A stretch of DNA of 64,000 nucleotides from Gemmatimonadota bacterium (GTDB taxonomy: Bacteria > Latescibacterota > UBA2968 > UBA8231): assembly GCA_038153405.1 (NCBI GenBank), contig JAYOYH010000007.1, positions 63,234 through 127,233 of the forward strand, in the 5' to 3' direction. Shown piece by piece: positions 6,739-23,661 of the stretch. A program made the position numbers and the translations under genes. Below the pieces are notes generated by a model. It saw nothing but the letters and a program-made list of their open reading frames with translations, was not told where the DNA came from and searched no databases. Positions within the stretch are counted from its first letter, which is position 1; each line of letters starts with the position of its first letter.

Positions 6739-7920
6739 TCAGTTGACCATCTGCATAAGGCGCTGCGTCATGGAGCCTTCCTGAGTCAGCGCGTAGACGA
6801 TGACGTTGATCGCCATTTGCATCTGGCGCAGCTTATCCTGCCCTTCAACGGATTCCGTATACCCCAGGCCGAGGCTGAAATCGATTCCTACGAGGCGCCC
6901 CTTTATAAAGTGTCCCGTGGTATATTGCCAAGCATTTTGGTTCTTGTTGGAACTGGTTCCGCGCGTCGAAGTAGGCGCTCCCCCTTTGAAATCGAAATAG
7001 GAGCTGAAGACCGGGTGGTCGTCTGGGAGGCGCTCAGACCAGAAATCGCGGCCCTCTACCAAACCGCCGTACTTTTCGAGGCCCTCTTTAACAAAACCGA
7101 TGCCGCCAAAAATAAATCCGCCGGACAGCAGATAGCGGGTCATCTGCTCCAATTCGCTCTCGTTGGGTGCACCTGCGGGCAGGATAATGGGTATTTCCAA
7201 TAGGCGATCGTCGTCGTAGGTGATGCTGCCGATGAAATCGGCGCTGATGCCCGTATACTCGTTCAGGCCGTTAACTAAAAAGCGCAGATTATTGGTCGAT
7301 CCGGTCGCCGTGCCCGAAGCCAGTGCGGCAGCAGATATTACGCGGGCAAAGTTGATGAACCCTTTAATGGCCTGCGGATCGCCCTGTTCCTGCACGAGCA
7401 TGGCGCGGTAGCGTCCGGTGTCCATGCTATTGACGTCGAGCATTTCAAGCGCCATATCGATTTTATTGTCCGGTTGGCGCGTGCCCGTAATGTCTACGGC
7501 GGTCATGGAAGGCTCCAGGGCAACCGTCCCCAAATCCACGGAGCGGGCCACCATCATCGATGGGCTTGCAGTCATGTTGAGTGCGGAAATGGTGCTAAAA
7601 CTGGCCGTGGCCTTCACCTGGTCCATCCGCGCGCGCGTGGCTACGGTCTGGCGCTGGATCATTTGCCGTTTGGGTTTGGGGATCTTGCGCAGTTCAAGTG
7701 GCTTGGTCAGCCGCGGTTCGCGCTTTATGAACTTGGTCGTCAGCGGCCTTGGAGCCGTCTCAACCGTCTCTTCCAGGGGATCGATGATCGCCGCGCAAAG
7801 GTGGATGAGCACGGCGAGTATCAGCGATAATAGGAGATACTTATGGAGCTCTTTGAGAAGAATCTCAGGATGGAACGATCGGGCGGGTGAAACAAAGCGC
7901 CGCGCAATGCCTGAACTCAT
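6739..7920 (-). CDS. Membrane-anchored protein with TonB-like N-terminal architecture and DUF4159-like C-terminal domain
   Basis: One TM (SLILAVLIHLCAAII), K/P/R-rich linker (KREPRLTKPLELRKIPKPKR), C-terminal YLLSGGFIF...LPDDHPVFSSYFDF...AINVIVYALT typical of DUF4159. ATGA-coupled to the upstream gene. Confidence 0.75.
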   Translation of the reverse strand: MSSGIARRFVSPARSFHPEILLKELHKYLLLSLILAVLIHLCAAIIDPLEETVETAPRPLTTKFIKREPRLTKPLELRKIPKPKRQMIQRQTVATRARMDQVKATASFSTISALNMTASPSMMVARSVDLGTVALEPSMTAVDITGTRQPDNKIDMALEMLDVNSMDTGRYRAMLVQEQGDPQAIKGFINFARVISAAALASGTATGSTNNLRFLVNGLNEYTGISADFIGSITYDDDRLLEIPIILPAGAPNESELEQMTRYLLSGGFIFGGIGFVKEGLEKYGGLVEGRDFWSERLPDDHPVFSSYFDFKGGAPTSTRGTSSNKNQNAWQYTTGHFIKGRLVGIDFSLGLGYTESVEGQDKLRQMQMAINVIVYALTQEGSMTQRLMQMVN

Positions 7921-8960
7921 TGTAAAACCCTTTTCTCGTAGTGAACGGGCCGCTGCTTTGAAAAGACGAGATCGCCGATGCCCAGTGTCTGACCGCGTTT
8001 ACGCACAGCGCGCTCCAACTTGTGGAGTCGCACCGTTGCCGAAGTGGGACCGACGGCTACTACTTTTACTCGGCCCAGCTTCATCTGCCTGTTTTCTCGC
8101 TGGAACACATCGAGCTGCATCCCTTCAATAATGCCATGATTAGCCCCTCTGTCAATGCGATACTGAGGTCGGTTGTCTTCATCGGTCGCTAGGATGGTGG
8201 AGATCGTTCCCCACAGGGGCAGGTGTGCGTCAATTTGGGGCAGGAGATCGCGTATCATGCAATCGATGAGATGGCCGCCGATGGCCGCATCGTTTTCGAG
8301 TGGGGATAGATACCAGCGGTCAGCGGAATTCAGCATGCGCAGGGAGGGTGGGTTTTTAAAGCGCTGACGCATAATCGGTGCTACGTAATCGCGTATGACC
8401 TCGGGGTGGGTATAGCCCGGATATTTGTCGGGATTGTAAACAAATCGGTTGTCGTGCTGCAGCATGATAGTGCTATCCTGTAAAGCGGACCAGACGATTT
8501 TATCGCGCTGGGTTTCTATCAGTCTAACTTCGATCGCCGCGCTCAGTGCGGGAAGAGCGGCTACTTCTCTGGGCTGAGAGTCGGCGGAACCGGAAAGCGT
8601 GGCTGCACTCGGCTCTGTGTAATACAGTGTGCGGTTGCGGTACAGCCTATCGATGCGCCGCAGCACGAAGTGTAAAACAAAGTCGATGCCTTCCTCCGCT
8701 TGAAATACGCTTCGTCCCCGCTGATCTAACTGTGCCGCTCGCGAGACCAGCCTGCAGCGGGGAAGGGTACCCAAGCCCCGCATTACGCCTTTTTGGGCCC
8801 GATAGCTTGCCGACTCGTATAGCGAATCGAGATGATCCCATCGCTTATCGGCGTCGGTCTCGTCGCTGAATGCGATGGCAACATTTAGGTGGGGTCTGGC
8901 CTGTAGGGCAGAGGGAGCAATTAGACCGAGGAGGATGCTCCACGCGCTCCACCGTATCAT
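7917..8960 (-). CDS. Exported protein with FlgT C-terminal-like beta domain
   Basis: Start placed at ATG 8960 (AGAGG RBS; signal MIRWSAWSILLGLIAPSALQA). C-terminal IDRGANHGIIEGMQLDVF...GRVKVVAVGPTSATVRL resembles FlgT_C. Confidence 0.6.
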   Translation of the reverse strand: MIRWSAWSILLGLIAPSALQARPHLNVAIAFSDETDADKRWDHLDSLYESASYRAQKGVMRGLGTLPRCRLVSRAAQLDQRGRSVFQAEEGIDFVLHFVLRRIDRLYRNRTLYYTEPSAATLSGSADSQPREVAALPALSAAIEVRLIETQRDKIVWSALQDSTIMLQHDNRFVYNPDKYPGYTHPEVIRDYVAPIMRQRFKNPPSLRMLNSADRWYLSPLENDAAIGGHLIDCMIRDLLPQIDAHLPLWGTISTILATDEDNRPQYRIDRGANHGIIEGMQLDVFQRENRQMKLGRVKVVAVGPTSATVRLHKLERAVRKRGQTLGIGDLVFSKQRPVHYEKRVLQ

Positions 8961-9147
8961 GAGCCTCTTTTCGTAGTCTATATTGAGCGCCAAATTGTGC
9001 GTAAAAATACATCTGCCTTAAGGCAATAACAATAATTATTTTTTTAGTTGTATGGGATTTTAAGATATAGACAACTATAGCCAAACACAGGCAATGCAAT
9101 GCGTTTATGAATTTGTTAAGAATTTTGAAAAAGGGGGCGATATGATC

Positions 9148-9176: not shown

Positions 9177-9276
9177 GGCCAATCAAGTAGACATTTTTTT
9201 ACGCTCAATACCTAGGCTCTAATCGCGCAGCGTGCGCGGGGATGACCTAAGGTGTTTTTCTTCAAGGAGAAGAAGT

Positions 9277-10209
9277 ATGAGGAAGCTGAGCATAGCTGCA
9301 GCTGCAGTGGTCGGTTTGGCCGGTGCCGCTTTCGCCCAGGGCGAAAGGGTATTCGACCTGCCGAAGCTTACCCAGGCACCCGTTCTCGACGGTGTCATTG
9401 ACGGCGATGAGTGGAACGGTTCGCTCGAACTCGACTGTTCCCCCTCGCGCGTTCAGGCCGACGGTGCCGAGTATGGCTGGCGCGACATCGAAGCCCAGCA
9501 GAGCGAAGTTAGCGTCAATCAGTTGGTGCAGTCGGATGGCGAAGATGCCGCGATTGCCCGCACCGATGCCGACTTCAGCTCGCGCATTTGGCAGGCTTGG
9601 GATGACGACGGCCTGTGGGTCGTAACCGCCGCTGCCGACAACGTCCATGACGTTGAGGGTGGTGACCGCGGTTGGGCCTGGTGGGAGCGCGATAGCCTCT
9701 CCCTCTACGTCGATCTGCTCAACGAAAAAGAAGAGTCTGTGCTCAACGGTGAATACACCGCGCTGAATATCATCAACTTCCAGGCTCGTCCGCTTGAGTC
9801 CAGCCCCTACACCGTTTCGTGGGCCCGCACGGTTGAAAATGCGCGTTCTGACGAAGACGGTAACGATCCCGACCTCGTCGCTGGTTTCGACAACGGCTAT
9901 CGCGACGCAGGCGACGAGTTTGGTGGCGAAGCAGACTACGTCCTTGAGATGTTTATTCCCTGGGAGAACCTGCTCCGTTTTAACCTGCCCGCCACGCCGG
10001 TCGTCGGCACCGAGATGGGTTTCTCTTGGCTGCCGCCAGATCCGGATGGCGATGACGCCTACGGCGGTCAGTTGCAGTGCTGGGGATGGGCTGATGACCC
10101 CTCCAACTACTCCACTTGGATCTTCTCCGACATGCCGGCTGGTCCCGCTGGTGGCAGCACGGCCGTCGAGAGCGATTCATGGGGTCGCATCAAGACGACG
10201 TTCCAGTAA
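9277..10209 (+). CDS. Exported acidic CBM9/DOMON-like sugar-binding protein with C-terminal SWGRIK tail
   Basis: Start placed at ATG 9277 (AGGAG RBS). Signal peptide ending AFA; APVLDGVIDGDEW, AWDDDGLW, WERDSLSLYVD, YVLEMFIPW are CBM9-like motifs; ends GGSTAVESDSWGRIKTTFQ. Confidence 0.75.
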   Translation: MRKLSIAAAAVVGLAGAAFAQGERVFDLPKLTQAPVLDGVIDGDEWNGSLELDCSPSRVQADGAEYGWRDIEAQQSEVSVNQLVQSDGEDAAIARTDADFSSRIWQAWDDDGLWVVTAAADNVHDVEGGDRGWAWWERDSLSLYVDLLNEKEESVLNGEYTALNIINFQARPLESSPYTVSWARTVENARSDEDGNDPDLVAGFDNGYRDAGDEFGGEADYVLEMFIPWENLLRFNLPATPVVGTEMGFSWLPPDPDGDDAYGGQLQCWGWADDPSNYSTWIFSDMPAGPAGGSTAVESDSWGRIKTTFQ

Positions 10210-10374: not shown

Positions 10375-13300
10375 GTGAAAACGCCCTTCAAGGTGAATTT
10401 AAGCCAAATAGCACGGTTCTTGGCGTTGGTTGGCTTATGGACGCTTGCCTCCCAGGCCGATGCGCAGCGCCATCCGGAATCGCAGGGCCCCTTGCCCTAC
10501 TATCGCGATGAACCGGGGGTGTTGCCGGAGCCTGAATGGCTGCATCGCCCCGAGTTCATCCGTGGGCCGCGGGATCGCTATGAGCGCGGTGCCAATCGAC
10601 TGTTTTTGGCCACAGGGGACGACGTTCCCTACCTCAACTACGCCGAAGAGCGCTTTATCCTCTCGCAGCGAGAGTTAATTCCTTGGTTCCAGCCCAAAGG
10701 CCGTTCTTGGAAATTTCGCAACACGCGCTGGGATCGCATGGGCAATTATATGGGATCCCCCTCCAGTACATCCTCGCCGGCCAGCGGTTATTTGCGGCTG
10801 TTTTCTTGGGAGGAAACGCGCAGCGACGACGACGGTTTAGGGCGCAGTTTTATCGACCATCGCTCGCCTTCGCCGTGGGGGCCGCCTGCCGGATATAACG
10901 ACGCCACTTTGCGCATAGGTCATTACAACTATAAAGATCTTCACTGGACGGCTACCGTCGGTCAGAGTGTGCGCAGTTATTTCACGCCGTTGACGCTAGC
11001 GCAAAGCCATCTTTCCGTGGCGCGCTTGGACTTCGATAATAAATTCGGCAAAGACCGCGCCACGATTCTGCTCAACAGGGGGCGGACGCGGCCCGGTGGC
11101 CTCTTTTCCGAATGGGCTTCCGTTGGCGGTGAAACCGAAGATGCCAACCCAGTCCTTATGTACGGTCTCCACTACAAGCATCGCTTCGGCCGCTACGCCC
11201 AATTTGGCACGACGCTCCTCAACCAGGTTTTGAACCAACCCGGATCCGGCAGCAGCAGTCCTTTGAAGGGCGATCTGCCCTACGATATGCTCGGTCCGCG
11301 CGTGATTCGCGTGTTCATCGCCGATGATTCACCCAGAGAGAGCCTGCACAATGCCAAGGTCTACGGCGTCGACATCGTCGTTCGCGGCACGCGCGGAGAC
11401 CAGCCCGTGACCCTTAGCAACCGCCAGGGGGAATTCTACGACCCGGGTTTAGAGCCGGTAGTGGCAGGTGGGCGGTTGCTGAGCGGAGATGGGCGGGAGG
11501 CGGTCGGTCTTGAAACGGTCGTGTATGAATTTACTATTCCGGGTGATATTACGGCGACCTCGGCCCGCTTCTTCGCCGATGTCTCCAACGACTATCGAAT
11601 TGGCATTCGGCAAATCTACGATTTTCCCGGCATTAGCCGCTCGGGCGAGCTCGATTTGGAAGAGCGGGTTTGGCCCGACGACTTCGTCACCACCGAATCC
11701 GTCACGCGCCGCCCCTTTAAGTGGGATATCCAGGAGGGCGAGGAACCCTATTATACGGTGGCCCGTTCGGAGGGCGTGGGGCAAAATGGTTCAAACCGTC
11801 GCGTCGTGCAGTTCGATCACGGCATTCCCACGGGCCAGAACCTATTTTCGTTCGACGCACAGGCCAATCTCATCGGTCTGAAGTTCAGCGGCGAAATCGT
11901 CCGCAACAATCAGAATTACATCTATCCCGTAGGCCGCAATGACGGGCGGCGGACCAGCCACAAGGCGTTGGCCTATTGGCTCAACGTCAAAAAGGATATT
12001 GGGATTGCCAAGCGCTTGGGCGCGCAGCTGGGCGCCGAGTTTTTTCGCTTGGATCCCAGCTATAGCGGCGGCTATGACAGCCAGCGCGGCGGCATGGCCT
12101 TCCACTTAGATCTGCAGGAATCACCGGGTGGGCGCGTGAAGTCGGATACGCAGGAGTACGGACTGGTCGAAGACAACGACGACGACGATCAGTGGCCCGA
12201 TGATTTTGTCGAAGATACAGCCTCGCCGGGACGCCTTTCTTACCCCGGTTGGCCCAACGCATCCGTATATCCGGGCTTGGACGAAAATCTCGACAATATT
12301 CCCGACGTCGACCGCAACGAAAACTTTGTGCCCGATTGGAACGAGGCATTTCTCACCTACGATGTCGATCCGCCAGAGTTTGTCTACGGAATAGACTTTA
12401 ACAACAACGGCATGCCGGATTTTCGCGAGAACGACGACTTGCCCGACTATCCTTATCGCCGGGATCAAAAGGGACGCCACTTCTTCCTATTGCTTGACCG
12501 CTTGGGCGGCTGGGGCAAATCCATTTCCGCTGGCTACTATAAGTCGAACGAGATTGCTGGCGGGACTGAGGCCAAAAGCATGTACCTGCGCTATGCTCTC
12601 GAAAAGCAGCGAGATGGGGTGGGGAGTTTACAAATCAACATCGATACCAAGATCGTAGAGGACAATATTCAAGACGATAGCTACGTGTATATCGTCCCGC
12701 CCAACGACGACGATGTCATTCCCTGGCTCAACAAGCCGGACCATCATCCCGACGTTGCCGGTCGCTACCGTCCTGCAACGCCCGATCCGCTGCTGATGCG
12801 CGACAGCTGGGTCAATACCGCTTATATCGACGCCGATTACCTGAAGATTGCGAATATGCGCATTCACAATGCGCTGCTGTGGACGCGCAACAGCATGTCC
12901 GAGATTCCCCTTGAAGGAGGCGGAGATGGCGAGTTGTTGCAGGCCGAAGACGTCCGCTCGCGCCTCATCGTGATCAACAAAGTCGATCGAACCTGGTTGC
13001 TTAAGTCCATCGCGATTTCGACCAAGTTCAAACACCGCTTAATCTACGAAAATGTCGACAGCGAAGAAGATCCGCGCATATCAGCTTCCGATTTTATTCC
13101 CATCGTGATGGGGGAGTATGCGCTGACGCCCAAGACCCGATTGGTGCTGGGCGCACAGGGCATGCCTTTTTTGCCCATGAAGCACTGGGATAGAGCCAAT
13201 AAAGACGGCACTTATTCTCAGACCGACTACGCCTTCATGTACAAGATGCGCTCGGAGTATTTCGGTTTTGAAAACGACTTCTTCTTCGGCTATTTGCTTA

Positions 13301-13380
13301 CGGATAGGCAGCACACTCGATTGCGCGACCGCGACTTCAATCGCGGCACGTTTTTCGTCGAAGTCATAACGCCATTCTAA
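10375..13380 (+). CDS. Large putative outer-membrane protein A (~1000 aa), paralog of 17414-20344
   Basis: Start placed at GTG 10375 (GGGGAG RBS; the ORF-track start lies 5' of the hairpin). Signal peptide ending QADA, amphipathic beta-like segments, Asp-rich DxDxN repeats, C-terminal FFVEVITPF ending in Phe. Confidence 0.7.
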   Translation: MKTPFKVNLSQIARFLALVGLWTLASQADAQRHPESQGPLPYYRDEPGVLPEPEWLHRPEFIRGPRDRYERGANRLFLATGDDVPYLNYAEERFILSQRELIPWFQPKGRSWKFRNTRWDRMGNYMGSPSSTSSPASGYLRLFSWEETRSDDDGLGRSFIDHRSPSPWGPPAGYNDATLRIGHYNYKDLHWTATVGQSVRSYFTPLTLAQSHLSVARLDFDNKFGKDRATILLNRGRTRPGGLFSEWASVGGETEDANPVLMYGLHYKHRFGRYAQFGTTLLNQVLNQPGSGSSSPLKGDLPYDMLGPRVIRVFIADDSPRESLHNAKVYGVDIVVRGTRGDQPVTLSNRQGEFYDPGLEPVVAGGRLLSGDGREAVGLETVVYEFTIPGDITATSARFFADVSNDYRIGIRQIYDFPGISRSGELDLEERVWPDDFVTTESVTRRPFKWDIQEGEEPYYTVARSEGVGQNGSNRRVVQFDHGIPTGQNLFSFDAQANLIGLKFSGEIVRNNQNYIYPVGRNDGRRTSHKALAYWLNVKKDIGIAKRLGAQLGAEFFRLDPSYSGGYDSQRGGMAFHLDLQESPGGRVKSDTQEYGLVEDNDDDDQWPDDFVEDTASPGRLSYPGWPNASVYPGLDENLDNIPDVDRNENFVPDWNEAFLTYDVDPPEFVYGIDFNNNGMPDFRENDDLPDYPYRRDQKGRHFFLLLDRLGGWGKSISAGYYKSNEIAGGTEAKSMYLRYALEKQRDGVGSLQINIDTKIVEDNIQDDSYVYIVPPNDDDVIPWLNKPDHHPDVAGRYRPATPDPLLMRDSWVNTAYIDADYLKIANMRIHNALLWTRNSMSEIPLEGGGDGELLQAEDVRSRLIVINKVDRTWLLKSIAISTKFKHRLIYENVDSEEDPRISASDFIPIVMGEYALTPKTRLVLGAQGMPFLPMKHWDRANKDGTYSQTDYAFMYKMRSEYFGFENDFFFGYLLTDRQHTRLRDRDFNRGTFFVEVITPF

Positions 13381-13385
13381 TCACG

Positions 13386-14147
13386 GTGAATGCGATGCCT
13401 CTGTTGAACTATACCGGCATACTCGCGGCTCTGTTGATCGCGGGATGCGCGCTTCCTCCGCACTCTGTCCTTAAGTATCAGGTGCAGGCTTTACCCATTA
13501 TCCCCGCGGGTGAATCGGTCTTTTACGAAGATCCGGTAGACAGCACCATTGTTTGGAGCAAAGAGGGCCTACAAATCAAAGTCCGGTTTTACAACGACGA
13601 CATGCTCGATGCCCGTTTTGATCCGAGAGTGAGCCCCTATACGCTGACCGGATGGAGCGATCCAATCTTGGGGTACACGCCGCCGCTGTGGACGACGTTT
13701 GAAATCACGGTGATCAACCGCACGCGCGAACGCGTAGAACTCGACCCGACACAGGCCATACTGCGACTGGACAATGGCAACCATCTCTATTGTCGTCAAG
13801 GCGTTGGGGTTTGGAAGACGCTGCCGCACTACTACGACTACAGCTATCTGAAGTGGAGTGGCCGCCAGGGCAACGTCGAGTTTTATGCCAATACGGACCG
13901 TAACGCCATTTGGAACCGCACGGAATTTCAGCGCGAAAAGCCCGTGCGCAAAGGGCGCAAATACACGGGTATGCTAACCTTTCCTCGGCTGCCCAATGAC
14001 GTCGAGTCGTTCACCCTTGAAATCAACGATTTCATCTTGGCCTATGACAGTGCCGAAGCCGGTTTTGGCAATCCGATAGAGTTTACTGATATACACTTTG
14101 ACTTTACAGTGAAGCAGGGAGTGGTCACCGTGGAGAGGAGTCGCTAA
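13386..14147 (+). CDS. Lipoprotein, Ig-like fold suspected; paralog of 25284-26078
   Basis: Lipobox LIAGC; FEITVINRT...ELDP...GMLTFPRLP motifs shared with the 25284 protein. Confidence 0.75.
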   Translation: MNAMPLLNYTGILAALLIAGCALPPHSVLKYQVQALPIIPAGESVFYEDPVDSTIVWSKEGLQIKVRFYNDDMLDARFDPRVSPYTLTGWSDPILGYTPPLWTTFEITVINRTRERVELDPTQAILRLDNGNHLYCRQGVGVWKTLPHYYDYSYLKWSGRQGNVEFYANTDRNAIWNRTEFQREKPVRKGRKYTGMLTFPRLPNDVESFTLEINDFILAYDSAEAGFGNPIEFTDIHFDFTVKQGVVTVERSR

Positions 14148-14816
14148 ATGAGAGCGCCTGCTCTATACATGCGCGCGTTTGCCGTGTTTGCTGCGTTGGC
14201 TGCCGTTGTTGGCTGTGGAAATCTGAAATACCAGGCGCTCAAGGGGACCAGCGTGGAGAATCCACCGCAGGCTCCGGTGAAGGTCTACGTAAAGGAGTTC
14301 CCCGTTACGAGCAAGGCCAATGTAATCGATCCCAATGCCGCGCTGGGGGACGGCGGTTACGGTGGAGGCGGGCGATCGATCAATGCGCTGGCGGAAGTGG
14401 GCAATGCCATCATGGTCATATCGAGGCCCTCGCGCATCGAAGACCTAACCCGTTCCCTACTGCGCGAACTGCGTCCGCGGCAGCTGCGCATCTTTTCCGA
14501 GTACGATCGGGTAACAGACTTGAAGGGCGTTCGCAATATTGACAACCCATTTGTCCTCGTGCCGCCGGAAGACGAGTCGGCGCAGCTCGAAATTAGTGGC
14601 ACTGTCTACTTGTTGAGCGAACGCGTCGAGCAGCGTTTTTCGCAAAACAGCAGCAGCGCGCGCGTGGAGCTTGTAGTGCGTGATGTTGCCAGCGGGGAAG
14701 AGGTTCGCTTGCCGCCGACGGCGGCCGGTATAAGCATGACCTATAACTCGAAAGAATTGGAAGAGGCGATCGCCATTTTCATCTCCACGCTGCTAACCCA
14801 AAAGACGCTCTTTTGA
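14148..14816 (+). CDS. Lipoprotein of unknown function
   Basis: Lipobox VVGC; starts immediately after the previous stop; Gly-rich segment GDGGYGGGG. Confidence 0.75.
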   Translation: MRAPALYMRAFAVFAALAAVVGCGNLKYQALKGTSVENPPQAPVKVYVKEFPVTSKANVIDPNAALGDGGYGGGGRSINALAEVGNAIMVISRPSRIEDLTRSLLRELRPRQLRIFSEYDRVTDLKGVRNIDNPFVLVPPEDESAQLEISGTVYLLSERVEQRFSQNSSSARVELVVRDVASGEEVRLPPTAAGISMTYNSKELEEAIAIFISTLLTQKTLF

Positions 14817-14817
14817 G

Positions 14818-16464
14818 GTGGTGAGGAAGATTGCCTTGGTATCAATGGTAACCATGCTGACGGCCTTTCCCAGCGCAGTGGATGCTGCAAGCCAAACGGT
14901 GACTTGGCGTTGGGATGGCGAGGATGCGAGTGTCTTGCAGTTGCTGCAGACAAGCGTTGACGTCGGCCGCGGAGTTGTGTTGGACGTGCTCTCGCCAGAC
15001 AAAAATATAGCTTTGGGAGCGATCGCGCGGAACGATTTTGGTCTGCGTGAACCGCTGACGGACGGGGAGGTCTCTCTGGTTGCCAGCGAGTGGATATCCA
15101 ATACGCCGAACGTATTCGGTCGATATTTCACCGTTGACCTTGGTGTAAACCGTGCGATAACGCGGGTGCGGGTGCGGCCCGGTCAAACCGCGATTAACCA
15201 ACCGGAATACTACATCCGCGGATACAGAGTGGAAGCGGCCTTGGAAAATGATCCGGATATTTGGCGTCTGCTGGCCGAAGAGCGCACGAACTTCAATTTG
15301 CTAATTGACACCGGTGCGGACTCTACGTGGGCCGTTGTGGCCGATGGTCAACTCGCTTCTCGTTTGGGCCGCTACGTGCGCTTTACCATTACCCGGCAGG
15401 ACCGCAGCAATTGGGTGGCAATTGGCGATATCGAGGTGTTCGGCGAGGGCGTTGAGGCTGAGGGTACGGCTCAATACACCTGGTTGCCGCAAGCACCGGT
15501 GAATGTGGGGCGCATACGGTGGCAGACCGAAGACCGTGCAGAGGGATTTAGTCTGTCTGCCAAGGGCGGTGATGAAACGTGGTCTACCGTCAACCCGCTG
15601 GAGTCCGATCGGTCTTTTGCAGGAGCTGAACCGATCGACTCGCTGCAATTTATGGCCTCGCTGTCGACTCACGATCCGTTTGCCACGCCCGTTTGGCGCG
15701 GGGTAGAGGTCGAATACGACACGCGCTTAGTCGCCGACGGGGCGTTGGGGGCGGTTGAGCCCAACGCGGTTGCCCGCGGGGAGTGGGCCGAGATTAACTA
15801 CAGCATTGAACTGGCACTGCGAGCGGATAATTACGGTGTGGATAGGGTGCTATTGGACGGAACGGCGCTGGTCGTTGATGGGCTGCGCGTGGATGGCGTC
15901 TTGCTGAGCAATAATGAGTATAGCTACAGCGCCAACGACGAATTGGGTCAGACTGAGATACAGATAAACCGCGCGGTCTTGCAGACGGCTCTGCTCCAAA
16001 TAGAAGGCCGGGGCCTTTTCCTCAACGAGGTAACGGAGATAGGATTTCGCGTTGGCAATGCGCAGCAGGAAGAAGCCGACGGCTATATTAACTGGCAAAA
16101 CGGCCGAGAGAGCCCGGTGGCTAGTTGGCGCGTGCGCGCTCAGGGAACACCCGGCGAATTGCTCGGCGAGATCGAGCTTTCCGAGCGGCCATTCTCGCCC
16201 TACGAAAGCAAAGAGCTGACGTTCAAGTTTATCGTCTCCAATTTGAACAACCCAACGGATATCGTCCTTTCGCTCTATCGTTTGAACGGCGTGCGGGTCC
16301 GGCAAATGCAGCAAAACGGCGGTGCGCGGCCCTATGAATTCCGCTGGGATGGAAGGGATGAAGGGGACCGATTGGTGGACCCCGGTCTCTACTTGTACGA
16401 GGTAAGAGTAGCCGGTGGCGGCGAGAGGAGCGGGCGGCGAGGAACATGCGTTGTCGCCTATTAG
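14818..16464 (+). CDS. Exported protein: discoidin (F5/8 type C)-like domain + C-terminal FlgD-Ig/T9SS-CTD-like domain
   Basis: Signal peptide; YFTVDLG...ITRVRV...YRVE...RYVRFTIT...IGDIEVFG (discoidin-like); C-terminal PFSP...LYRLNGVRVR...FRWDGRDEGDRLVDPGLYLYEVRV...GTCVVAY. Confidence 0.72.
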   Translation: MVRKIALVSMVTMLTAFPSAVDAASQTVTWRWDGEDASVLQLLQTSVDVGRGVVLDVLSPDKNIALGAIARNDFGLREPLTDGEVSLVASEWISNTPNVFGRYFTVDLGVNRAITRVRVRPGQTAINQPEYYIRGYRVEAALENDPDIWRLLAEERTNFNLLIDTGADSTWAVVADGQLASRLGRYVRFTITRQDRSNWVAIGDIEVFGEGVEAEGTAQYTWLPQAPVNVGRIRWQTEDRAEGFSLSAKGGDETWSTVNPLESDRSFAGAEPIDSLQFMASLSTHDPFATPVWRGVEVEYDTRLVADGALGAVEPNAVARGEWAEINYSIELALRADNYGVDRVLLDGTALVVDGLRVDGVLLSNNEYSYSANDELGQTEIQINRAVLQTALLQIEGRGLFLNEVTEIGFRVGNAQQEEADGYINWQNGRESPVASWRVRAQGTPGELLGEIELSERPFSPYESKELTFKFIVSNLNNPTDIVLSLYRLNGVRVRQMQQNGGARPYEFRWDGRDEGDRLVDPGLYLYEVRVAGGGERSGRRGTCVVAY

Positions 16465-17314
16465 AAGCTGGTTGTTGTTCATTAATTGTTTGGGACTCAG
16501 TGTCGTAGGGCCAGTCGGCGCCGCGTTTGAAACGGGGGCAGGGGCGTATTCCACTGCGCTGGGCAACGCTTTTTCGGCCGGGGTAGAATCGGCCGAAGGA
16601 GTATGGTTTAATCCTGCGACCTCTGCTAGGCTGCGTTTGCCGCGCGTCGCCATAACGCAGGGTGCGCTCTACTCAGGGCTGAGCGATCGCCCAAGCATCA
16701 GCGCTGCAGCCGGTGTTTGGCCCCGGCGCTGGGGCACGCTGCAGGCGGGTTTTTCCGGCCTGTGGGCAGATGATTGGGCTGAAAGCCAGTGGCTATTGGG
16801 CTACGGTCGCGTGCTGCACCCTCGGTTGTCGGTTGGAGCGCAGCTGCGGACGGCCAGTTGGAGTTCGGGGCGCTATGGGCAGCGCCGCTGGCTGGCCACC
16901 GTCGGTGCCCTATACGAAGCGGGGTGGGTCAGTTCGCGTTCCTACGTTCGCTTTTCGGCTGTCGTGGCCAATATAGGCCGGCCCGATTCCAAGTCGGCCA
17001 GGGCGTCGGGTATGCCCGCGCGTTCGCATACGTTGGGCATGCAGGTTCGAAATGCAACGCGTGCCCTCTTGCTCGACTTGGTCGAACAGGGCGGCGATTG
17101 GCAGGCGCGCTGCGGGTATGAATCGGTGCTGCGCGCCGAATTAAAGCTGCGGCTTGGAGCGACGGTATTGCGGGGTGATACCGTAAATAAGACCGGGCAT
17201 ATAGGACTGGGGTACGAGTGGAAAAACGTGCATTTTGACTATGCGTTTTCGCGTTCGTACGACCTAAACGACTTCGGGGCCGACCACCGTTTTGGCATTG
17301 GCTATGCTTGGTGA
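16451..17314 (+). CDS. PorV/PorP(SprF)-like outer-membrane beta-barrel
   Basis: Start placed at TTG 16451 (uncertain). GAYSTALGNAFSA...VWFNPA matches the PorV/PorQ-type N-terminal motif; C-terminal FDYAFS...GADHRFGIGYAW. Confidence 0.7.
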   Translation: MSPIRSWLLFINCLGLSVVGPVGAAFETGAGAYSTALGNAFSAGVESAEGVWFNPATSARLRLPRVAITQGALYSGLSDRPSISAAAGVWPRRWGTLQAGFSGLWADDWAESQWLLGYGRVLHPRLSVGAQLRTASWSSGRYGQRRWLATVGALYEAGWVSSRSYVRFSAVVANIGRPDSKSARASGMPARSHTLGMQVRNATRALLLDLVEQGGDWQARCGYESVLRAELKLRLGATVLRGDTVNKTGHIGLGYEWKNVHFDYAFSRSYDLNDFGADHRFGIGYAW

Positions 17315-17413
17315 GGTTTCGGACGCAACGAAAAGGCAAAAGGATTCGCTGAGCGGAGGCGAATGTCCATGAAAATAGAGCGGTTTTTATACTTCTCGGG
17401 TGAGGGAGCAATT

Positions 17414-20344
17414 ATGGAGCACGCGAATCGCGGTTATCGCTTGAGGTTACACGTCCTCGGGGTGCTTTGCGCGCTGGTCGCTCTGGGCGATGTCGGGTTT
17501 GCGCAGACGCACCTGCGCGATCGCGACTTTCTCAATCTGGGCTCGACAGAGGGCTATCTCAACTACGGCCGCACGGAATACGAGCCCTATCCCGAACTCA
17601 TTAGTGCGCGCAATCGCTACGACCGCCTGGGCAATTTTCAGATGCGCGGCCACAGGACGTTCACCTGGGAACTCCAGCGTCCTGGGTTTAGCGAAATCAG
17701 CACGCGCTCTGAGCAGTATCTGGGTTGGTTTAACAACCTCATCATTATGAATGATACTTACCGGGGTTGGGATTTCGGGGTGACGGTTGGTGAGGATATC
17801 CGCACTAAACTCACCGATTTGACCTTCCACGATCCGCGCTACTACGGTATTCGCATGGACGGCGCGTCGGCCGATAACCGCTTTACGCTACTGCTTAGCC
17901 AGGGCGGCACGCAGGCCACGCAGTCGCCCAATCCCAAGTTTTCCACTTTTCAGGGCGGCAAAGAGCGTTCGTCTGTGCTGATGTTTGGTGGACACTGGGA
18001 GACGCAGTTGGGCAATATCCTCAAACTGGGCGCTACTTATTTCAACCACCATATGTTGGATACGTTCAATGACAAGGGCGCCTTTGTCCGCGGCGATACA
18101 CCCTATAGCATGCTGGCGCCCGCCTTTATTACGATCATCGTCGAGGACGATTCGCCCGATGCCAATCAGGTCGGTGCCGTCGTATACGATGTGGGTATCG
18201 AAATTCAGGCCGAGTCGCTGGGGCAGCAAATCCGCCTTAGCAGCTTGGAAGGCGATGCCAACTACGATCCCACTCTGAGGCCGACGGTAGAAGGCGGCCT
18301 TCTCAACGCAGACGGCGGTCGTCACGTCAGCGGCGACGGCCAGCGCGTATTCTACACTTTCCGGATGCCCGAGTTCGCCCTGCCCGACGCGGCCGACTAT
18401 GCCAACGATCCGTCCGCGGCGTTAAACGGACTCACGGTCAAATCGGTTCGCTTTCTGGCCGATGTAGCCGGCGATTACAGAATATTGGTTAAGCAGCAGC
18501 ACCTCTTCTTCAATGAATCGGCCTACGAGAAGAACCTCGAAAAAGAGTATGTGCCCGGCGATAATAGCTACGTCAATCCATTCACCGGTTTGAAAGGAGC
18601 GGATGCCCTGCTGAGTCCGCAAGAAGCCTACGAAGCGGGGGAAGAAATATTCAAGCAGTGGCCGGTGCCGCCCAACCAGTCGATTAGCCAACTCAACCCC
18701 TTTATGCAGTTCAAATGGGATCTGGAAAACCCAGAAGAGGTGGCCTATACCGTCGTCCGCGCCGAGTCCAACTCAACCGATCTGAGCAACCGCCGCATCG
18801 TGAGCTTTGACTACGGCATTCCCACCGGGCAAGCGCTATTCGGTCTCAATAGCCACCTGACGTTGGGTGGATTTGATGTCAAGGCCGAGTTCGTTACAAA
18901 TCCGCAGTATTTTATCTACCCGATTGGGAATAATGCGGGCAAGCGATTTCAGAAGAAGACGTTGGCCTACTTCATCAATGCGGTCAAGCGCTACGAGTCG
19001 CTGTCCTTTGGCGTTGAACTCTTCCAACTCGACCCCGACTACGGCGGCAATTACGACAGCATTCGCGGTGGCGTGCCCTTTTTTACTGATGTGGCGCAAA
19101 CCGGTTCGCAAATGCAGGAAATATTCGTCATGACCGACAACGACGACAACGATCAGTGGCCCGACGAACTCATCGTCGAACTGCCTAGCGCAGACCGCCA
19201 AGATTCGGGCGTTTTTCCCGGCCTCGACGAAAACCAGGATCTGGTGCCCGATACCGATCAGAACCTCAACGGCATCGCCGACTGGACCGAGCCCATTATT
19301 TTTTACGATGCCGATCCACCCGAATTCGTCTACGGCCTCGACTTCAACAACAACGGCGTAGTCGATTTTCGCGAAAACGATGGGTTGCCCGATTACCCCT
19401 ATCGCCGTGATCGCCGCGGGTTCCACCTCTTCACGCGCAAGGACGGCCTCGGCTTGTTGGGTAAGACCCTTTCGCTGGGCTACTACGACACCAAGGAAGT
19501 GGCTGGTCGCGGCAGGGCCAAGGCCATCTACGCGCGCTACGAGTACAGCACGAACTCACCGTATTTGGGCCGTATTCGCATCAACGAGGATATCAAACGC
19601 GTAGAAGACAGTATTCGCGATGACGTCTATATCTGGCGCGATCGCAGCGTGCAGCGCATCGACTCGCCCTATCCGCACATCACGCCGCGTCAGATAGAGG
19701 AGCGCGACCTCAACTCGCAGTTGCTGCCGCCCGACAGGGACCCGTTGCTGATGCGCAACAGCCTAGTCAATACCCTCTTTATCGAGGCACGCACCAGCCC
19801 CATCATCGATTTTAATTTGATCAACAACATTCAATGGCTGCGCAACAGCCAGTCAGCTGACGAGTTTGACGACGGCGTAGTACAAGAAGAGGACGTCCGT
19901 TCGCTCATCACCATGGTCAATAAAGTCGACTATACGATCCGCGCTGGAAATGTTACGGTAAAGCCCATGTTCAAGCATTTGCTCCTGCGCGAACACTCGC
20001 AAAAGCTCGATCGCGAACAGGGTCAAGGCAGCACGCGCTCGTTTTCCATTTTTACGCCGATTTTGCGCACCCGTCTCGATCTGACCAACAAATCCTACCT
20101 GCAGCTGGGATTTCAGGGGTTGCCGTTCTGGCGCTACACCAAGACCGACCGCGTCGACAGCAGCCAGAATTTCAAGGAGTGGACTACCGTATTCATGTTG
20201 ACCAATCGATCGGATTACTATGGTTTTGCGCTGTCGACTCAAATTGGCTGGGAGACTACCCGCCGCGAGTATGACGACGAGATCAATTCGGCGCTCAACC
20301 GCAACAGCTCTACGCTGTTTTTCGATGTGCTGGCCGGCTTTTAA
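17414..20344 (+). CDS. Large putative outer-membrane protein B (~976 aa), paralog of 10375-13380
   Basis: Start placed at ATG 17414 (GAGGGAG RBS). Signal peptide, same motif order as paralog A, C-terminal LFFDVLAGF ending in Phe. Confidence 0.7.
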   Translation: MEHANRGYRLRLHVLGVLCALVALGDVGFAQTHLRDRDFLNLGSTEGYLNYGRTEYEPYPELISARNRYDRLGNFQMRGHRTFTWELQRPGFSEISTRSEQYLGWFNNLIIMNDTYRGWDFGVTVGEDIRTKLTDLTFHDPRYYGIRMDGASADNRFTLLLSQGGTQATQSPNPKFSTFQGGKERSSVLMFGGHWETQLGNILKLGATYFNHHMLDTFNDKGAFVRGDTPYSMLAPAFITIIVEDDSPDANQVGAVVYDVGIEIQAESLGQQIRLSSLEGDANYDPTLRPTVEGGLLNADGGRHVSGDGQRVFYTFRMPEFALPDAADYANDPSAALNGLTVKSVRFLADVAGDYRILVKQQHLFFNESAYEKNLEKEYVPGDNSYVNPFTGLKGADALLSPQEAYEAGEEIFKQWPVPPNQSISQLNPFMQFKWDLENPEEVAYTVVRAESNSTDLSNRRIVSFDYGIPTGQALFGLNSHLTLGGFDVKAEFVTNPQYFIYPIGNNAGKRFQKKTLAYFINAVKRYESLSFGVELFQLDPDYGGNYDSIRGGVPFFTDVAQTGSQMQEIFVMTDNDDNDQWPDELIVELPSADRQDSGVFPGLDENQDLVPDTDQNLNGIADWTEPIIFYDADPPEFVYGLDFNNNGVVDFRENDGLPDYPYRRDRRGFHLFTRKDGLGLLGKTLSLGYYDTKEVAGRGRAKAIYARYEYSTNSPYLGRIRINEDIKRVEDSIRDDVYIWRDRSVQRIDSPYPHITPRQIEERDLNSQLLPPDRDPLLMRNSLVNTLFIEARTSPIIDFNLINNIQWLRNSQSADEFDDGVVQEEDVRSLITMVNKVDYTIRAGNVTVKPMFKHLLLREHSQKLDREQGQGSTRSFSIFTPILRTRLDLTNKSYLQLGFQGLPFWRYTKTDRVDSSQNFKEWTTVFMLTNRSDYYGFALSTQIGWETTRREYDDEINSALNRNSSTLFFDVLAGF

Positions 20345-20388: not shown

Positions 20389-23300
20389 ATGCTTCTTGTG
20401 AATCTTCTCGTGATTGCCATAATGGGCGGAGCTGTGGGGTTGACGTCGCGCTATTTTTCCCCGCAAGAGCTGCAAGATCGCTTTGGCTTTGGGCAAAAGC
20501 TCTATGCCTTGGGCGACTACGAGAAGGCCTTGCCTCATTTCGAAGCCGTTATGGCGACGAAAAACAACATCACGATCAACGTCGAAGATGTCACTGTTAC
20601 TCTCGACGAGTTTATCTTGCCCGTGCGAGTTGCTGCCACCTATCAGCTGGGCAATACGCACAACAAGCTGGGGCAGGACAAACTGCGCCGCTCGGGGTTC
20701 TTGCGCGCAGAGGGCAAAGAGGATCAAGCCGATCAGCGCTACCAAGAGGCATTGGAGGAATTCAAGCGCAGCTTGGAGTATTTTGGCGAAATAAGCGCTG
20801 GCGAAGAAATCGATGAGCGCACGCGGGTTATGGCGCAATTCCAGACGCTTGAAACCAACTACAAGCTCAAGCAATTTGATAGCGTGATTGAAGAGGGGGA
20901 ACGCCTGCTCGAGCAGTTTCCCAACAGCGTGTATGAGACGGCCGCTTACTATAATATCGGCTGGTCGTATTACGAATTGGGTCAATACGGCAACGCTATC
21001 GACAACTTTAAAGAAGTGATAACGCTGTCGCCGCGCGGTTCGCACGCCGACCGCTCATACTTTCAGATCGCCGAATCGTACGGCAATTTGGAAGAGTACG
21101 ACCAATCGCTGAACTACCTGGACCGGCTCATACGGCGCTATGACTTTTCCGCGATGTCGGAAAAGGAACTGATAGAAATGGCCAGCCTCAAGCTCAAAGG
21201 CCTCGTCGAGGAGACCTCGCGTGAATTGGTCGCCAAAGCACAGCTCAAGCGCGGCGATATTTTTTCCCGGCGCGGCGATGTAGATATGGCGCTGGCGGCC
21301 TATGCCAATGTGCCGGAAAAGTATCCGATGGAGACGGCACTAGTCGAGAATGCCTACATTCGCTCAGCCGAACTGATCAACGAAACGCGCGGCACCGACG
21401 CGGCGCTTATCGCCTACCAGAGCGCCATTGAAAACGTTGACGACAAGCGCTTTCAGGCCAGAACTCAGCTGACGATCGCGCGCTTGCTGTTTGAAAAAGA
21501 TGCCTTTGAACGGGCGGCCGAGCAGTACCGCATCTTCCTCAGCGCCTACGGAGACGTGGCGGCGCGCATTGGCTTTGCCGAAGACAAGGTGCTCTTCCGC
21601 ATCAGCCAGTGTCACCAAGCGCTGATTCGCACGCACTTGGCCAACGGCAATGCCGATGGGGCAGACGAAGCAACGGCTGAGGCGTTGAGGATCTACGACG
21701 AGCTGCTAGTCAAACACGGCGATAGCCCGCTGTTGCCCGACGTCTACTTCTCGCGCGGTTACGCCCGCCAGCTAATAAAAGACGCAGGAGCAGCCGACGA
21801 CTTCACGCATATGGTTAGTACCTACCCCGATCACCCAGCCGCCCCCAATGCGCTTCTGCAGCTTGCGCGCATCGACTTTGAGGCGGGTAAGTTCCAGAGG
21901 GCACAGGCGACCTATGAGCGATTGCTGACGGACTTTCCCGAATCTGACCCGATCAATCCCGCGCGTATGGAACTGGGTCTGTGCTTCAAGAATATGAACG
22001 ACCTGACCCGCGCAATCGCCTCCTTTGAATCGATTGATTCGCAGTGGAGCCAGTGGGGCAAAGTGCAGGCTGAGTTGGCCGACCTCTACGTGCGTTCCGG
22101 CGATCGCTCGGGTGCCAAGCGCGTGCTCGAGCGCGCTATGGAGCAGGTTGACAGCGATGAACTGCGCGGACAGCTCGTTTACGTAAAATCGCGCGTCCAC
22201 TTCACCGAGGCCGAGTATCGCGAGGCCATTGAAGGCTTTTCGCAAGCGCTGGAACTGCCTATTCGCGAAGATATTTACAACGGTTCGCTTCTCTCGCGGG
22301 GCAGTGCATACTACGAACTGGCCAAAACGCTCGATGCCAAGGGCGATACGGCGCGCGCGCGCGGCGAATACGAGTTGTCTTTGATTGATATGAAAGCGCT
22401 CCTTGAGCGCGACCCGCCAGCCAACATAAAGGACAGCGCATTTCGTACTTTGGGTGCGGGAATGATCCGTCTGCAGCGAGAGGACGAGGCCGTTCGCTAC
22501 TACAAAGAGCTCATCGCATCCAGCGATGATCAGCAGCAGCGCGCGACGTTTCAAATGCTGCTGATGGAGCTCTATTTTGATCAGCAGGCCTTCGAACAGT
22601 CTGAAATCTTTGCCCGAGAGCTCCTCGAAATGGATTTCGAGGACGACAACAACGCCGGCTATTACCGCAAAGAACGCGCCTATTCAATAATTGGCAACGC
22701 GCTTGTTCAGCGCAAAGATTATGCGGAAGCCAGTAAGATTTTCGCCGAAGGGCTAGCCCAGTATCCACAGTCGGGTGAGAGCGCCAACCTGGCCTTTTCC
22801 AAGGCGTTTTCTGATTTCAATGGCGGCGATTACGAACTGGCCGCTAAGGGGTTTGCTTTTTATGTCAATTCGTTTTCGAACGATCGCAATGCCGTACACG
22901 GCCAGTACTACCTGGCCCATAGCTATCAAATGCTCACCGACTTTGATAGCGCGGCGACGTCATTCAGTGAGCTAATGGATCGCTATCCTCGCTCGAACTA
23001 TACCGAAGAGGCGATGTTCTTAGTCGGGGAAAATTACTACAACAAGCGCGATTTCGCCGCCGCTTCGCAGGCCTATTCTACGCTGCTAGAGCGCTTTCCG
23101 AAGGGAAGGTATGGCGACGCGGCTCTGTACGCCAAGGCCTGGTGCGAATTCGAGCAAGAAGATATGGAAGCGGGAGTGGCTTCAATGGCCCAGCTCGTAA
23201 GCAACTTTCCCCAAAGCGAGTTTGCCGCCAAAGCTCAGTTTACGGTTGGCGATTACCACTACAACAACCGCAACTATAAAGAGGCGCTCAAAGCCTACTC

Positions 23301-23661
23301 TGTCTTGATCGAGTCCTATGCCTCTACGCCGGAAAAACAGCGCGCAGAAGCTCTCGTCGAAGAACTGAGCGAAATCGAGGCGAGTTTGGATTACGCTCAG
23401 GTTATGGGCAAATTCGAGTCAAAAGACTATGAAAATGCCATTAGGGGTTTTAAGGAAATTATCGAGAAATATCCCGATACCTATACGCAGCTGGCTGCCT
23501 ATTGCAATCTGGGGCTCACCTACGAGATCCTCAGGCAGTGGCCTCAAGCTGTCGAGAATTACGATCAAACCCTGGCCAGAGGGGAGGGCGATATCGAAAA
23601 TTCGGACGTCGTCAATTTTGCTCGTCTGCACCGGGATTGGATCGTCGAAAACAGGCTATAA
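20389..23661 (+). CDS. Very large TPR protein with BamD/CpoB-type repeats (1090 aa)
   Basis: N-terminal hydrophobic anchor or signal, then many repeats ending in (F/Y)P.S such as LLEQFPNSVYETAAYYNIGWSYY and LMDRYPRSNYTEEAMFLVGENYY. Confidence 0.88.
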   Translation: MLLVNLLVIAIMGGAVGLTSRYFSPQELQDRFGFGQKLYALGDYEKALPHFEAVMATKNNITINVEDVTVTLDEFILPVRVAATYQLGNTHNKLGQDKLRRSGFLRAEGKEDQADQRYQEALEEFKRSLEYFGEISAGEEIDERTRVMAQFQTLETNYKLKQFDSVIEEGERLLEQFPNSVYETAAYYNIGWSYYELGQYGNAIDNFKEVITLSPRGSHADRSYFQIAESYGNLEEYDQSLNYLDRLIRRYDFSAMSEKELIEMASLKLKGLVEETSRELVAKAQLKRGDIFSRRGDVDMALAAYANVPEKYPMETALVENAYIRSAELINETRGTDAALIAYQSAIENVDDKRFQARTQLTIARLLFEKDAFERAAEQYRIFLSAYGDVAARIGFAEDKVLFRISQCHQALIRTHLANGNADGADEATAEALRIYDELLVKHGDSPLLPDVYFSRGYARQLIKDAGAADDFTHMVSTYPDHPAAPNALLQLARIDFEAGKFQRAQATYERLLTDFPESDPINPARMELGLCFKNMNDLTRAIASFESIDSQWSQWGKVQAELADLYVRSGDRSGAKRVLERAMEQVDSDELRGQLVYVKSRVHFTEAEYREAIEGFSQALELPIREDIYNGSLLSRGSAYYELAKTLDAKGDTARARGEYELSLIDMKALLERDPPANIKDSAFRTLGAGMIRLQREDEAVRYYKELIASSDDQQQRATFQMLLMELYFDQQAFEQSEIFARELLEMDFEDDNNAGYYRKERAYSIIGNALVQRKDYAEASKIFAEGLAQYPQSGESANLAFSKAFSDFNGGDYELAAKGFAFYVNSFSNDRNAVHGQYYLAHSYQMLTDFDSAATSFSELMDRYPRSNYTEEAMFLVGENYYNKRDFAAASQAYSTLLERFPKGRYGDAALYAKAWCEFEQEDMEAGVASMAQLVSNFPQSEFAAKAQFTVGDYHYNNRNYKEALKAYSVLIESYASTPEKQRAEALVEELSEIEASLDYAQVMGKFESKDYENAIRGFKEIIEKYPDTYTQLAAYCNLGLTYEILRQWPQAVENYDQTLARGEGDIENSDVVNFARLHRDWIVENRL

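Follow-up and report, generated by a model that had tools for sequence, protein, structure and literature searches.

Two sister members of an undescribed family of predicted giant outer-membrane beta-barrels, encoded together with an ExbB/ExbD motor in a Latescibacterota genome

Genes A and B lie within a stretch of 64,000 nucleotides (the window) of contig JAYOYH010000007.1 from assembly GCA_038153405.1, a Gemmatimonadota bacterium placed in the Latescibacterota. The contig is labeled C7 in its own genome, and coordinates given without a contig or locus label are positions in the window. The products of A and B are ancient sister proteins in an undescribed family whose structural models are giant outer-membrane beta-barrels of about 30 strands each. 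The two genes belong to a conserved operon that includes an ExbB/ExbD motor, and their products may well serve as outer-membrane conduits in an envelope system that is coupled to this motor and probably takes up nutrients, a reading to which we give about an even chance of being correct. We infer the overall function of the system from the predicted structures, from the order of the genes, and from their joint occurrence in related genomes.

RESULTS

Two paralogous proteins that match no known family

The open reading frames (ORFs) of the two genes are as follows.

10375-13380 (ORF 10243/10375-13380), + strand: barrel A, 1001 amino acids (aa); signal-peptide-like N terminus; ~30-strand outer-membrane beta-barrel in the model; C-terminal Phe
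17363-20344, + strand: barrel B, 993-aa ORF, likely start at 17369 or 17414; signal-peptide-like N terminus; ~30-strand barrel in the model; C-terminal Phe

Starting from the GTG at 10375, A has 1001 aa, a length equal to that of its orthologue cluster P0080 (79% identity). The database protein identical to B (P0004) has 991 aa, and the exact start of B is uncertain because orthologues of 969-975 aa match an internal ATG at 17414. A BLASTP alignment of the two proteins showed 35% identity (348/1005 columns; E, 6e-158) and covered residues 118-1045 of A and 53-993 of B in the translated ORFs. Collinear motif pairs in this alignment included WDRMGNY/YDRLGNF, KGDLPYDML/RGDTPYSML, IADDSP/VEDDSP, RFFADVSNDYRI/RFLADVAGDYRI, SNRRVVQFDHGIPTGQ/SNRRIVSFDYGIPTGQ, and DPLLMRDS/DPLLMRNS, together with EDVRS..NKVD and KFKH. 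Read from the sequence, both N termini are basic and continue into a hydrophobic stretch that ends in A-Q and is helical in the models, and the C termini are ..VITPF and ..VLAGF, with Phe as the last residue in A and B alike. An earlier note on this DNA had placed the two ORFs at the same positions, listed the motif pairs, and assigned signal peptides and a terminal Phe to both proteins; the ORF list, the BLASTP alignment, and the translations bore out the positions, the motifs, and the terminal Phe, and the N termini, with their modeled helix, were signal-peptide-like.

The description of the pair as having no recognizable family also held. Pfam and NCBIfam contained no family matching A or B at an E value of ≤1e-2 (0.01), and Pfam contained none at an E value of ≤10; consequently, no plug, POTRA, or TonB_dep_Rec model fits either protein. 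When the single sequence B and the profiles A1 and A2 were each searched against the PDB sequences, the matches did not rise above chance level and comprised a ribosomal protein, a flavodoxin, IF-3, and a restriction-enzyme M subunit. Among 30 feature matches in the ESM Atlas, none shared a common Pfam family, and the three matches shown were unnamed clusters from Latescibacterota or Gemmatimonadota. The nearest named ESM Atlas cluster was DUF6029, which is TonB-dependent-receptor-like (score, 0.89); lacking hmmscan backing, it was set aside as a lead only.

The predicted fold is a very large outer-membrane barrel

AlphaFold (AF2) produced a model of A with a pLDDT of 82.5 and a pTM of 0.84 (114-sequence alignment) and a model of B with a pLDDT of 67.8 and a pTM of 0.64 (35-sequence alignment). 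Nearly the whole of each model, from residue ~125-180 through the C-terminal residue, consists of long beta-hairpins, and the DSSP lists contain roughly 28-32 membrane-length strands for each protein, that is, ~30 as counted from the lists rather than from coordinates. When the models were compared with the PDB by Foldseek, outer-membrane barrels accounted for 41 of 41 matches of B and 34 of 34 matches of A at E values of ≤1e-3. The top matches of B were MtrB (2.5e-9) and SlpA (2.5e-9), followed by LptD, ushers, TonB-dependent receptors, and porins; for A, MtrB was matched at 4.8e-10 and SlpA at 2.4e-7. The TM-scores of these matches were low (0.1-0.3), as is expected when strand numbers differ. 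In a search of 48,161 chains that was independent of Foldseek, all 50 rows listed for model A were bacterial or mitochondrial outer-membrane barrels; BamA, TamA, and FhaC appeared with Z scores of ~10 over the C-terminal half only.

On the strength of these models, the fold class of A and B, very large outer-membrane beta-barrels, is considered settled. The earlier note had suggested a barrel and proposed AlphaFold and Foldseek as a check on each protein; the models proved barrel-like, their matches at E values of ≤1e-3 were exclusively outer-membrane barrels, and no characterized family gave a confident full-length match. Two better-known identities were considered and rejected. The SprA/Sov translocon has 2100-2400 aa and 36 strands, compared with ~1000 aa here, and A and B have no TIGR04189 match (the SprA chain 8gl6_A was a weak Foldseek match to both models, with an E value of ~1e-3). 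Likewise, neither protein has the POTRA or Bac_surface_Ag Pfam match of an Omp85/BamA/TpsB protein.

A large inserted domain, also proposed in the earlier note, was found in the form of an invariant D/N-rich segment of ~100 residues together with a variable insert between strands. Positions that are invariant throughout the family cluster in this one acidic segment, which occupies residues ~590-685 of B and reads DNDDNDQWPD...PGLDEN.D..PD.DQN.NG..DW...DFNNNG..DFREND..PDYPYRRD. In the model built from the deeper alignment (A), the segment is confidently predicted and has little secondary structure. Its DxDxNG-like spacing presumably resembles that of calcium-binding loops. Binding of calcium is a probable role of the insert, as is giving the lumen its shape or blocking it. 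The N-terminal ~100 residues (YxNY...YDxxGN) are also conserved and are poorly ordered in both models.

A multicopy family in Latescibacterota

The earlier note had spoken of two paralogous proteins, and this proved far too small a number. In the own genome, 47 profile match segments were resolved into 23 ORFs of ~880-1075 aa; these are spread over 14 sites, and one is truncated by the end of a contig. The matches break into N- and C-terminal pieces because the variable inter-strand insert differs among paralogs. In public data, a first profile retrieved 732 clusters at 50% identity, 504 of them with E values of ≤1e-10, and with a second profile, clustering at 90% identity, no fewer than 1001 clusters had E values of ≤1e-20. 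Among the 120 public clusters listed, all were named "hypothetical protein," none had a Pfam domain, and the sources were metagenome-assembled genomes labeled Latescibacteria/-ota or Gemmatimonadetes/-ota. Of 61 genomes sampled from the phylum, 34 contained barrels; 10 of the 61 had at least 15 scored barrel matches, and one genome had 88 first-look candidates. The 27 sampled genomes in which barrels were not found constitute three taxonomic families. Searches of the open literature, as distinct from most subscription journals, turned up no description of the barrel family, nothing on type IX secretion in Latescibacter, and nothing relevant on outer-membrane beta-barrels of Latescibacteria.

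A quickly built maximum-likelihood tree of 35 barrels placed A and B as sisters (SH-aLRT, 99). Their clade also holds a triplet of barrels on contig C34 of the own genome and the DUF4159-linked barrels of a distantly related genome, G003. A separate clade (clade I) takes in 17 of the 23 barrels of the own genome. Because A and B are sisters in the tree and are kept together in their loci, they are an old duplicate pair of which both copies have been retained. Tandem triplets of barrel genes were frequent elsewhere, occurring on contigs C224, C59, and C68 of genome G001, at G003:C2:779875-788342, and on C34 of the own genome. SlpA, the structurally nearest solved protein, is a homotrimer. The retained pair and the tandem doublets and triplets would fit multi-barrel assemblies, including the heterodimeric channel that the earlier note had raised as a possibility, without proving them.

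Most of the own-genome paralogs differ from A and B in lacking a terminal aromatic residue and end in ..AGLE, ..AGVER, or ..AGLQ. These ends lie 1-3 residues beyond a conserved F/Y-x-G motif, so that the beta-signal is seemingly internal in these proteins.

A conserved operon around A and B

Related loci were collected with alignment A1, which retrieved mostly orthologues of B and A. Forty-four loci with a B orthologue came from other species (B identity, 54-96%). In all 34 loci with a full upstream flank, A, the lipoproteins of 253 and 222 aa, the discoidin/C-terminal domain (CTD) protein, and the PorV-like gene occurred in the same order. Downstream of B, the giant TPR gene was present in 39 of 39 loci with sufficient flank, and ExbB was present in 35 of these 39. 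The genes around A and B in the window are as follows.

6739..7920, - strand: inner-membrane protein, 393 aa, TonB-like and headed by a DUF4159 domain; Pfam DUF4159, E 2.7e-9
7917..8993, - strand: protein without family, 358 aa; no Pfam match; overlaps the DUF4159 gene and lies upstream of it
9232..10209, + strand: CBM9-like protein, 325 aa; Pfam CBM9_1, E 2.7e-7; directly upstream of A
13386..14147, + strand: lipoprotein-like protein, 253 aa; Cys after a hydrophobic N terminus; 34/34 full-upstream-flank loci
14148..14816, + strand: lipoprotein-like protein without family, 222 aa; 34/34 full-upstream-flank loci; single copy in the genome
14818..16464, + strand: secreted discoidin/CTD protein, 548 aa; Pfam F5_F8_type_C_2, F5_F8_type_C, and FlgD_ig
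16415..17314, + strand: PorV/PorQ-like small barrel, 299-aa ORF; NCBIfam PorV_fam, E 4.8e-8; 34/34 full-upstream-flank loci
20389..23661, + strand: TPR protein, 1090 aa; N-terminal hydrophobic anchor; many Pfam TPR families; NCBIfam tol_pal_ybgF, 229 bits, six stretches
23698..24366, + strand: ExbB/TolQ-type proton channel; Pfam MotA_ExbB, E 6.8e-30
24382-24828 and 24831-25280, + strand: two different ExbD/TolR genes; Pfam ExbD, E 3.5e-26 and 1.1e-25
25284..26078, + strand: lipoprotein-like protein, 264 aa; paralog of the 253-aa protein
26207..27847, + strand: SurA-like parvulin peptidyl-prolyl isomerase, 546 aa; Pfam Rotamase_2 and Rotamase; ends the conserved gene order and is downstream in most loci

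The 358-aa and DUF4159 genes are upstream of A and divergent from it, and the 358-aa gene was kept beside the DUF4159 gene in L064, L067, L073, and L076, the four loci with a long enough flank. Homologues of the CBM9-like protein adjoin barrels in G003 (L085, L082, L086, and L079) and in the own-genome locus L012. The family assignment of the 299-aa ORF is uncertain, with 32.9 bits for PorV_fam against a cut-off of 90, and a 50-nt overlap with the gene before it makes a start later than 16415 probable.

The 253-aa and 264-aa lipoprotein-like paralogs share 34% identity (E, 1e-37). Proteins of a lipoprotein-like family of ~250 aa without a Pfam match were also seen directly beside barrels at L017:6226-6990, L016:811-1551, L021:4861-5667, and L015:11654-12541. 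By analogy, such proteins could serve as lumen plugs in the manner of LptE. MtrB and LptD are 26-stranded barrels that enclose a partner protein. They are like A and B in being giant barrels accompanied by lipoproteins that could sit inside, and the best Foldseek E values were those of MtrB, given above, with LptD at 1e-6 to 1e-5. Unlike a true member of either family, however, A and B gave TM-scores of 0.12-0.33 (0.12-0.16 for LptD, a generic barrel similarity) and no LptD/OstA or MtrB family match, and their operon contains no cytochrome or lipopolysaccharide-transport genes.

Within a few kilobases of barrels, OPT-fold DUF6785/DUF6784 proteins and PhyH-type dioxygenases recur in the own genome and in G003. 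Genes of these OPT-fold or PhyH types are located as follows.

30091-31995, 40658-42664, and 39836-40651 in the window
loci L078, L082, L085, and L015

A DUF4159 protein as a putative link between the barrels and the motor

By its sequence, the protein encoded at 6739-7920 has a TonB/TolA-like build, in which a short cytoplasmic tail and a His-containing transmembrane helix are followed by a linker rich in P, K, and R and by the DUF4159 domain at the C terminus. It is a full-length homologue of the ~440-445-aa proteins that adjoin barrels in G003 (hidden Markov model [HMM] E value, 2.4e-72). All eight of the ~440-aa barrel neighbors scanned in that distantly related genome were DUF4159 proteins; conversely, 9 of its 16 DUF4159 matches were <1 kb and 11 were <4 kb from a barrel, as read from the coordinates without permutation. 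When the 61 sampled genomes were searched for the putative DUF4159 transducer at a threshold E value of ≤1e-15, 29 of the 34 barrel-bearing genomes gave a match, compared with 0 of the 27 that lack barrels. Copy numbers rise jointly, with 31 transducers alongside at least 15 barrels in G001 and 14 alongside ~15 barrels in G003.

The own genome contains a second cassette at C34:20446-36885 (locus L009 and beyond), in which three barrels, TPR, DUF4159, a lipoprotein like the 253-aa protein, ExbB, ExbD, and ExbD follow one another in the same direction. A third, partial cassette at C85:8458-14158 is composed of TPR, ExbB, ExbD, and DUF4159, with no barrel match on C85. A canonical ExbB-ExbD-ExbD-TonB set is located elsewhere in the genome, on C52.

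Passages of Williams-Jones et al. 2025 (PMC12204202) describe vWA-headed TonB/TolA-like force transducers encoded with TPR, tolQ-like, and two tolR-like genes. The motor side of that set is like the one found here in its TPR protein, one ExbB/TolQ, two ExbD/TolR, TonB-like anchor, and conserved transmembrane His. It is unlike the present set in its head: the term DUF4159 occurs 0 times in the main text of that paper, and the main-text passages on "barrel" contain none on an outer-membrane partner family of this kind.

Structural likeness to SlpA

In the structural comparisons, the longest alignments were those with the 30-stranded SlpA of Deinococcus (Z score of 12.4 over 406 residues for A and 7zgx_A; Z score of 13.1 over 409-438 residues for B). 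OmpM1 and small porins reached SlpA-like Z scores over ~170-260 residues, and because of this tie, homology with SlpA is not established. Sub-threshold matches to Pfam SlpA_C (PF21620) were obtained for 9 of 50 family members (2/5, 6/25, and 1/20 in three scans) and for neither A nor B; the matches always involved the profile region ~200-312, with E values of 8e-7 to 2e-3 and scores of 17-28 bits (cut-off, 35 bits). SlpA (8ae1 and 7zgx) is like A and B in being a single-chain outer-membrane barrel of ~30 strands and comparable length. According to passages of PMC9388160, its pore is lined by metal-binding insertions, which, as acidic and probably metal-binding elements, recall the invariant D/N-rich insert of the barrel family. 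Judged from the models, a distant tie of the family to SlpA is possible.

These likenesses, including the equal Z scores of OmpM1 and classical porins, would agree with A and B being passive, abundant structural porins or scaffolds, distant relatives of SlpA/OmpM with metal-stabilized loops, to which the motor genes are mere neighbors. We regard this as distinctly improbable. Unlike SlpA/OmpM, A and B have no SLH domain (Pfam), no long helix besides the signal peptide (models), and no coiled-coil stalk; they have no significant sequence match to SlpA, which was also absent from the results of the PDB searches with profiles A1 and A2. Whereas SlpA is one abundant protein, the barrel family is multicopy, and dozens of divergent copies per genome suit substrate-specific transporters better than a scaffold. 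Nor would passive porins be expected to show the link of A and B to ExbB/ExbD, TPR, and DUF4159 genes, with a fixed order relative to ExbB/ExbD/TPR in 35-39 of 39 loci and co-distribution with the DUF4159 protein across genomes.

Barrel genes adjacent to type IX secretion cargo

The own genome contains one SprA match (TIGR04189) in a 2133-aa ORF on C29, ~8 PorV/PorQ-family genes, and 104 distinct CTD sites of the FlgD_ig/CHU_C type, many of them with the type-B motif TPNGDGxND. A genome search for PorP_SprF (PF11751) gave one match, on another contig, with 16.7 bits, below the cut-off. The end of a CTD was <300 bp from 15 of the 23 barrel ORFs, whereas random placement (2000 draws) gave 1.67 on average and never more than 7, and 20 of the 23 had a CTD at <3 kb, compared with a random mean of 3.3. 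The barrel-adjacent CTD gene was always directly upstream on the same strand, and the encoded CTDs followed the pattern FTPNGDGxND...WDGRD...PPGxY...VAY and matched Pfam CHU_C (type-B). The adjacency was found mostly in clade I (12 of 17 barrels) and not in the A/B clade. In the window, residues 82-548 of the 548-aa protein are homologous to the ~640-aa CTD proteins found upstream of paralog barrels; its type IX-type CTD has kept the WDGRD...PGLY...VAY half and lacks the TPNGDG motif, which is present in 22 of the other 23 CTDs aligned with it (alignment A4). The idea that the ~640-aa proteins arose by fusion of a CTD to a DUF4159 protein was rejected, as an HMM of the G003 DUF4159 partners matched, among the neighbors, only the two known DUF4159 genes.

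The close spacing argues for a role of the barrels in docking or shuttling type IX cargo; they would bind the CTD of a protein exported by SprA and hold this protein on the surface, as the 14-stranded PorP/SprF do in Bacteroidota. Passages of PMC9143113 describe PorP/SprF shuttles of Bacteroidota as holding a gene position beside type-B cargo and anchoring this cargo, and type-B substrates are described as often genetically linked to PorP/SprF shuttles in PMC12618676; a barrel gene immediately downstream of a type-B-CTD gene is thus an arrangement comparable to sprB-sprF and other reported pairs. The same role is favored by the lack of a PorP_SprF match reaching the cut-off despite 104 CTD sites and an SprA gene, and by the CTD protein and PorV-like gene that precede B in 34 of 34 loci. 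For A and B themselves it is nevertheless unlikely, given that the adjacency is concentrated outside their clade and that, in G003, only 1 of ~15 barrels had an FlgD_ig (CTD) match within 3 kb. The proteins also differ in kind: PorP/SprF are 14-stranded, FadL-like, and ~300-400 aa in length, whereas A and B have ~30 strands and ~1000 aa and match neither PF11751 nor NF033709, the PorV_fam matches being on other ORFs. SprA was present in 59 of the 61 sampled genomes, and none of the 27 without barrels was without it; type IX secretion therefore does not need the barrels, and the possibility that they are a core part of the system was rejected. A complex prediction for residues 27-876 of the L016 barrel and the 105-residue CTD of its upstream neighbor, run with alignments and without controls, gave a score of 0.00 in two runs, which speaks neither for nor against binding.

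DISCUSSION

If A and B are conduits of a motor-coupled system, the ExbB/ExbD motor would harness the proton-motive force and work through the TonB-like DUF4159 protein, and the giant TPR protein may participate in the transfer of force. The target would be the barrels, reached possibly, as a guess, via their conserved and poorly ordered N-terminal ~100 residues. Motor action would open the barrels or drive the passage of something large across the outer membrane. Energized uptake of large nutrients appears most likely because the discoidin and CBM9-like surface proteins, which have sugar-binding folds, would catch the substrate. The system would then be a functional analogue of TonB-dependent/SusC systems assembled from unrelated parts.

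Import is favored for three reasons. The family has expanded and diversified as substrate-specific importers do. Its neighbors are genes of the uptake and degradation type: solute-binding proteins, ABC permeases, OPT-fold DUF6785/6784 transporters, a sulfatase, a BNR sialidase-like protein, and a GDSL lipase were found beside paralogs, as were CBM9, discoidin, and leucine-rich-repeat proteins. Finally, the genome has only six TonB-dependent receptors, a whole-genome TonB_dep_Rec (PF00593) search having given seven matches on six ORFs, none of them on C7. TonB-dependent transporters and SusC are like the barrel family in being large barrels expanded per genome, in using an ExbB/ExbD motor with a TonB-like inner-membrane protein, and in having binding proteins and inner-membrane transporters as neighbors. 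They are unlike it in several respects: A and B have no Plug (PF07715) or TonB_dep_Rec match at a Pfam E value of ≤10 and have ~30 strands (model) rather than 22, the transducer ends in DUF4159 rather than TonB_C, the set includes a giant TPR protein, and energy coupling is deduced from the genes.

Several observations weigh against motor-coupled uptake. No plug of the TonB-dependent-transporter type or TonB box was found in A or B, although no search was aimed at TonB boxes. Five of the 34 barrel-bearing genomes gave no DUF4159-transducer match at the threshold used, and the co-distribution rests on few independent events because the 27 negatives represent only three families. No motor or DUF4159 gene adjoins the 17 clade-I barrels among the 23 of the own genome. 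In addition, the PorV-like gene and the CTD protein of the operon could indicate secretion or surface display.

The set of TPR, TolQR-like, barrel, and lipoprotein components presumably also resembles the Agl-Glt machinery. By this analogy, the barrels would be the outer-membrane component of a machine that acts outward or serves motility, like the myxobacterial Agl-Glt/Nfs, and that moves or exports surface material instead of importing it. The parts match in kind: ExbB/TolQ, two ExbD/TolR, a giant TPR protein, a TonB-like anchor, barrels, and lipoproteins. However, no Glt, Nfs, or Gld family was found among the proteins scanned, and many copies per genome amid uptake and degradation genes would be unusual for a motility or export machine, which makes this alternative very improbable.

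A more elaborate form of the motor-coupled conduit may be put forward tentatively, as a possibility rather than an expectation. A and B, probably with cognate lipoproteins, would form a hetero-oligomeric gate that ExbB/ExbD opens via the DUF4159-headed TonB analogue and the TPR protein. Such a gate would represent a second, TonB-independent class of active transporter, served by sugar-binding catchers displayed through type IX secretion, and the sister subfamily of barrels would provide docking sites for type-B CTDs, replacing PorP/SprF in the phylum.

What is understood of outer-membrane transport comes from a few barrel families, and the proteins described here add a large, unnamed family with ~30 predicted strands. 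Its fixed link to ExbB/ExbD and to a TonB-like protein with an unstudied head points to an undescribed route for energizing the outer membrane. The cargo-adjacent barrels offer a second, testable case of this arrangement for type IX secretion, outside Bacteroidota. If motor-coupled uptake is true, it could explain how uncultured Latescibacterota with few TonB-dependent receptors feed on complex organic matter.

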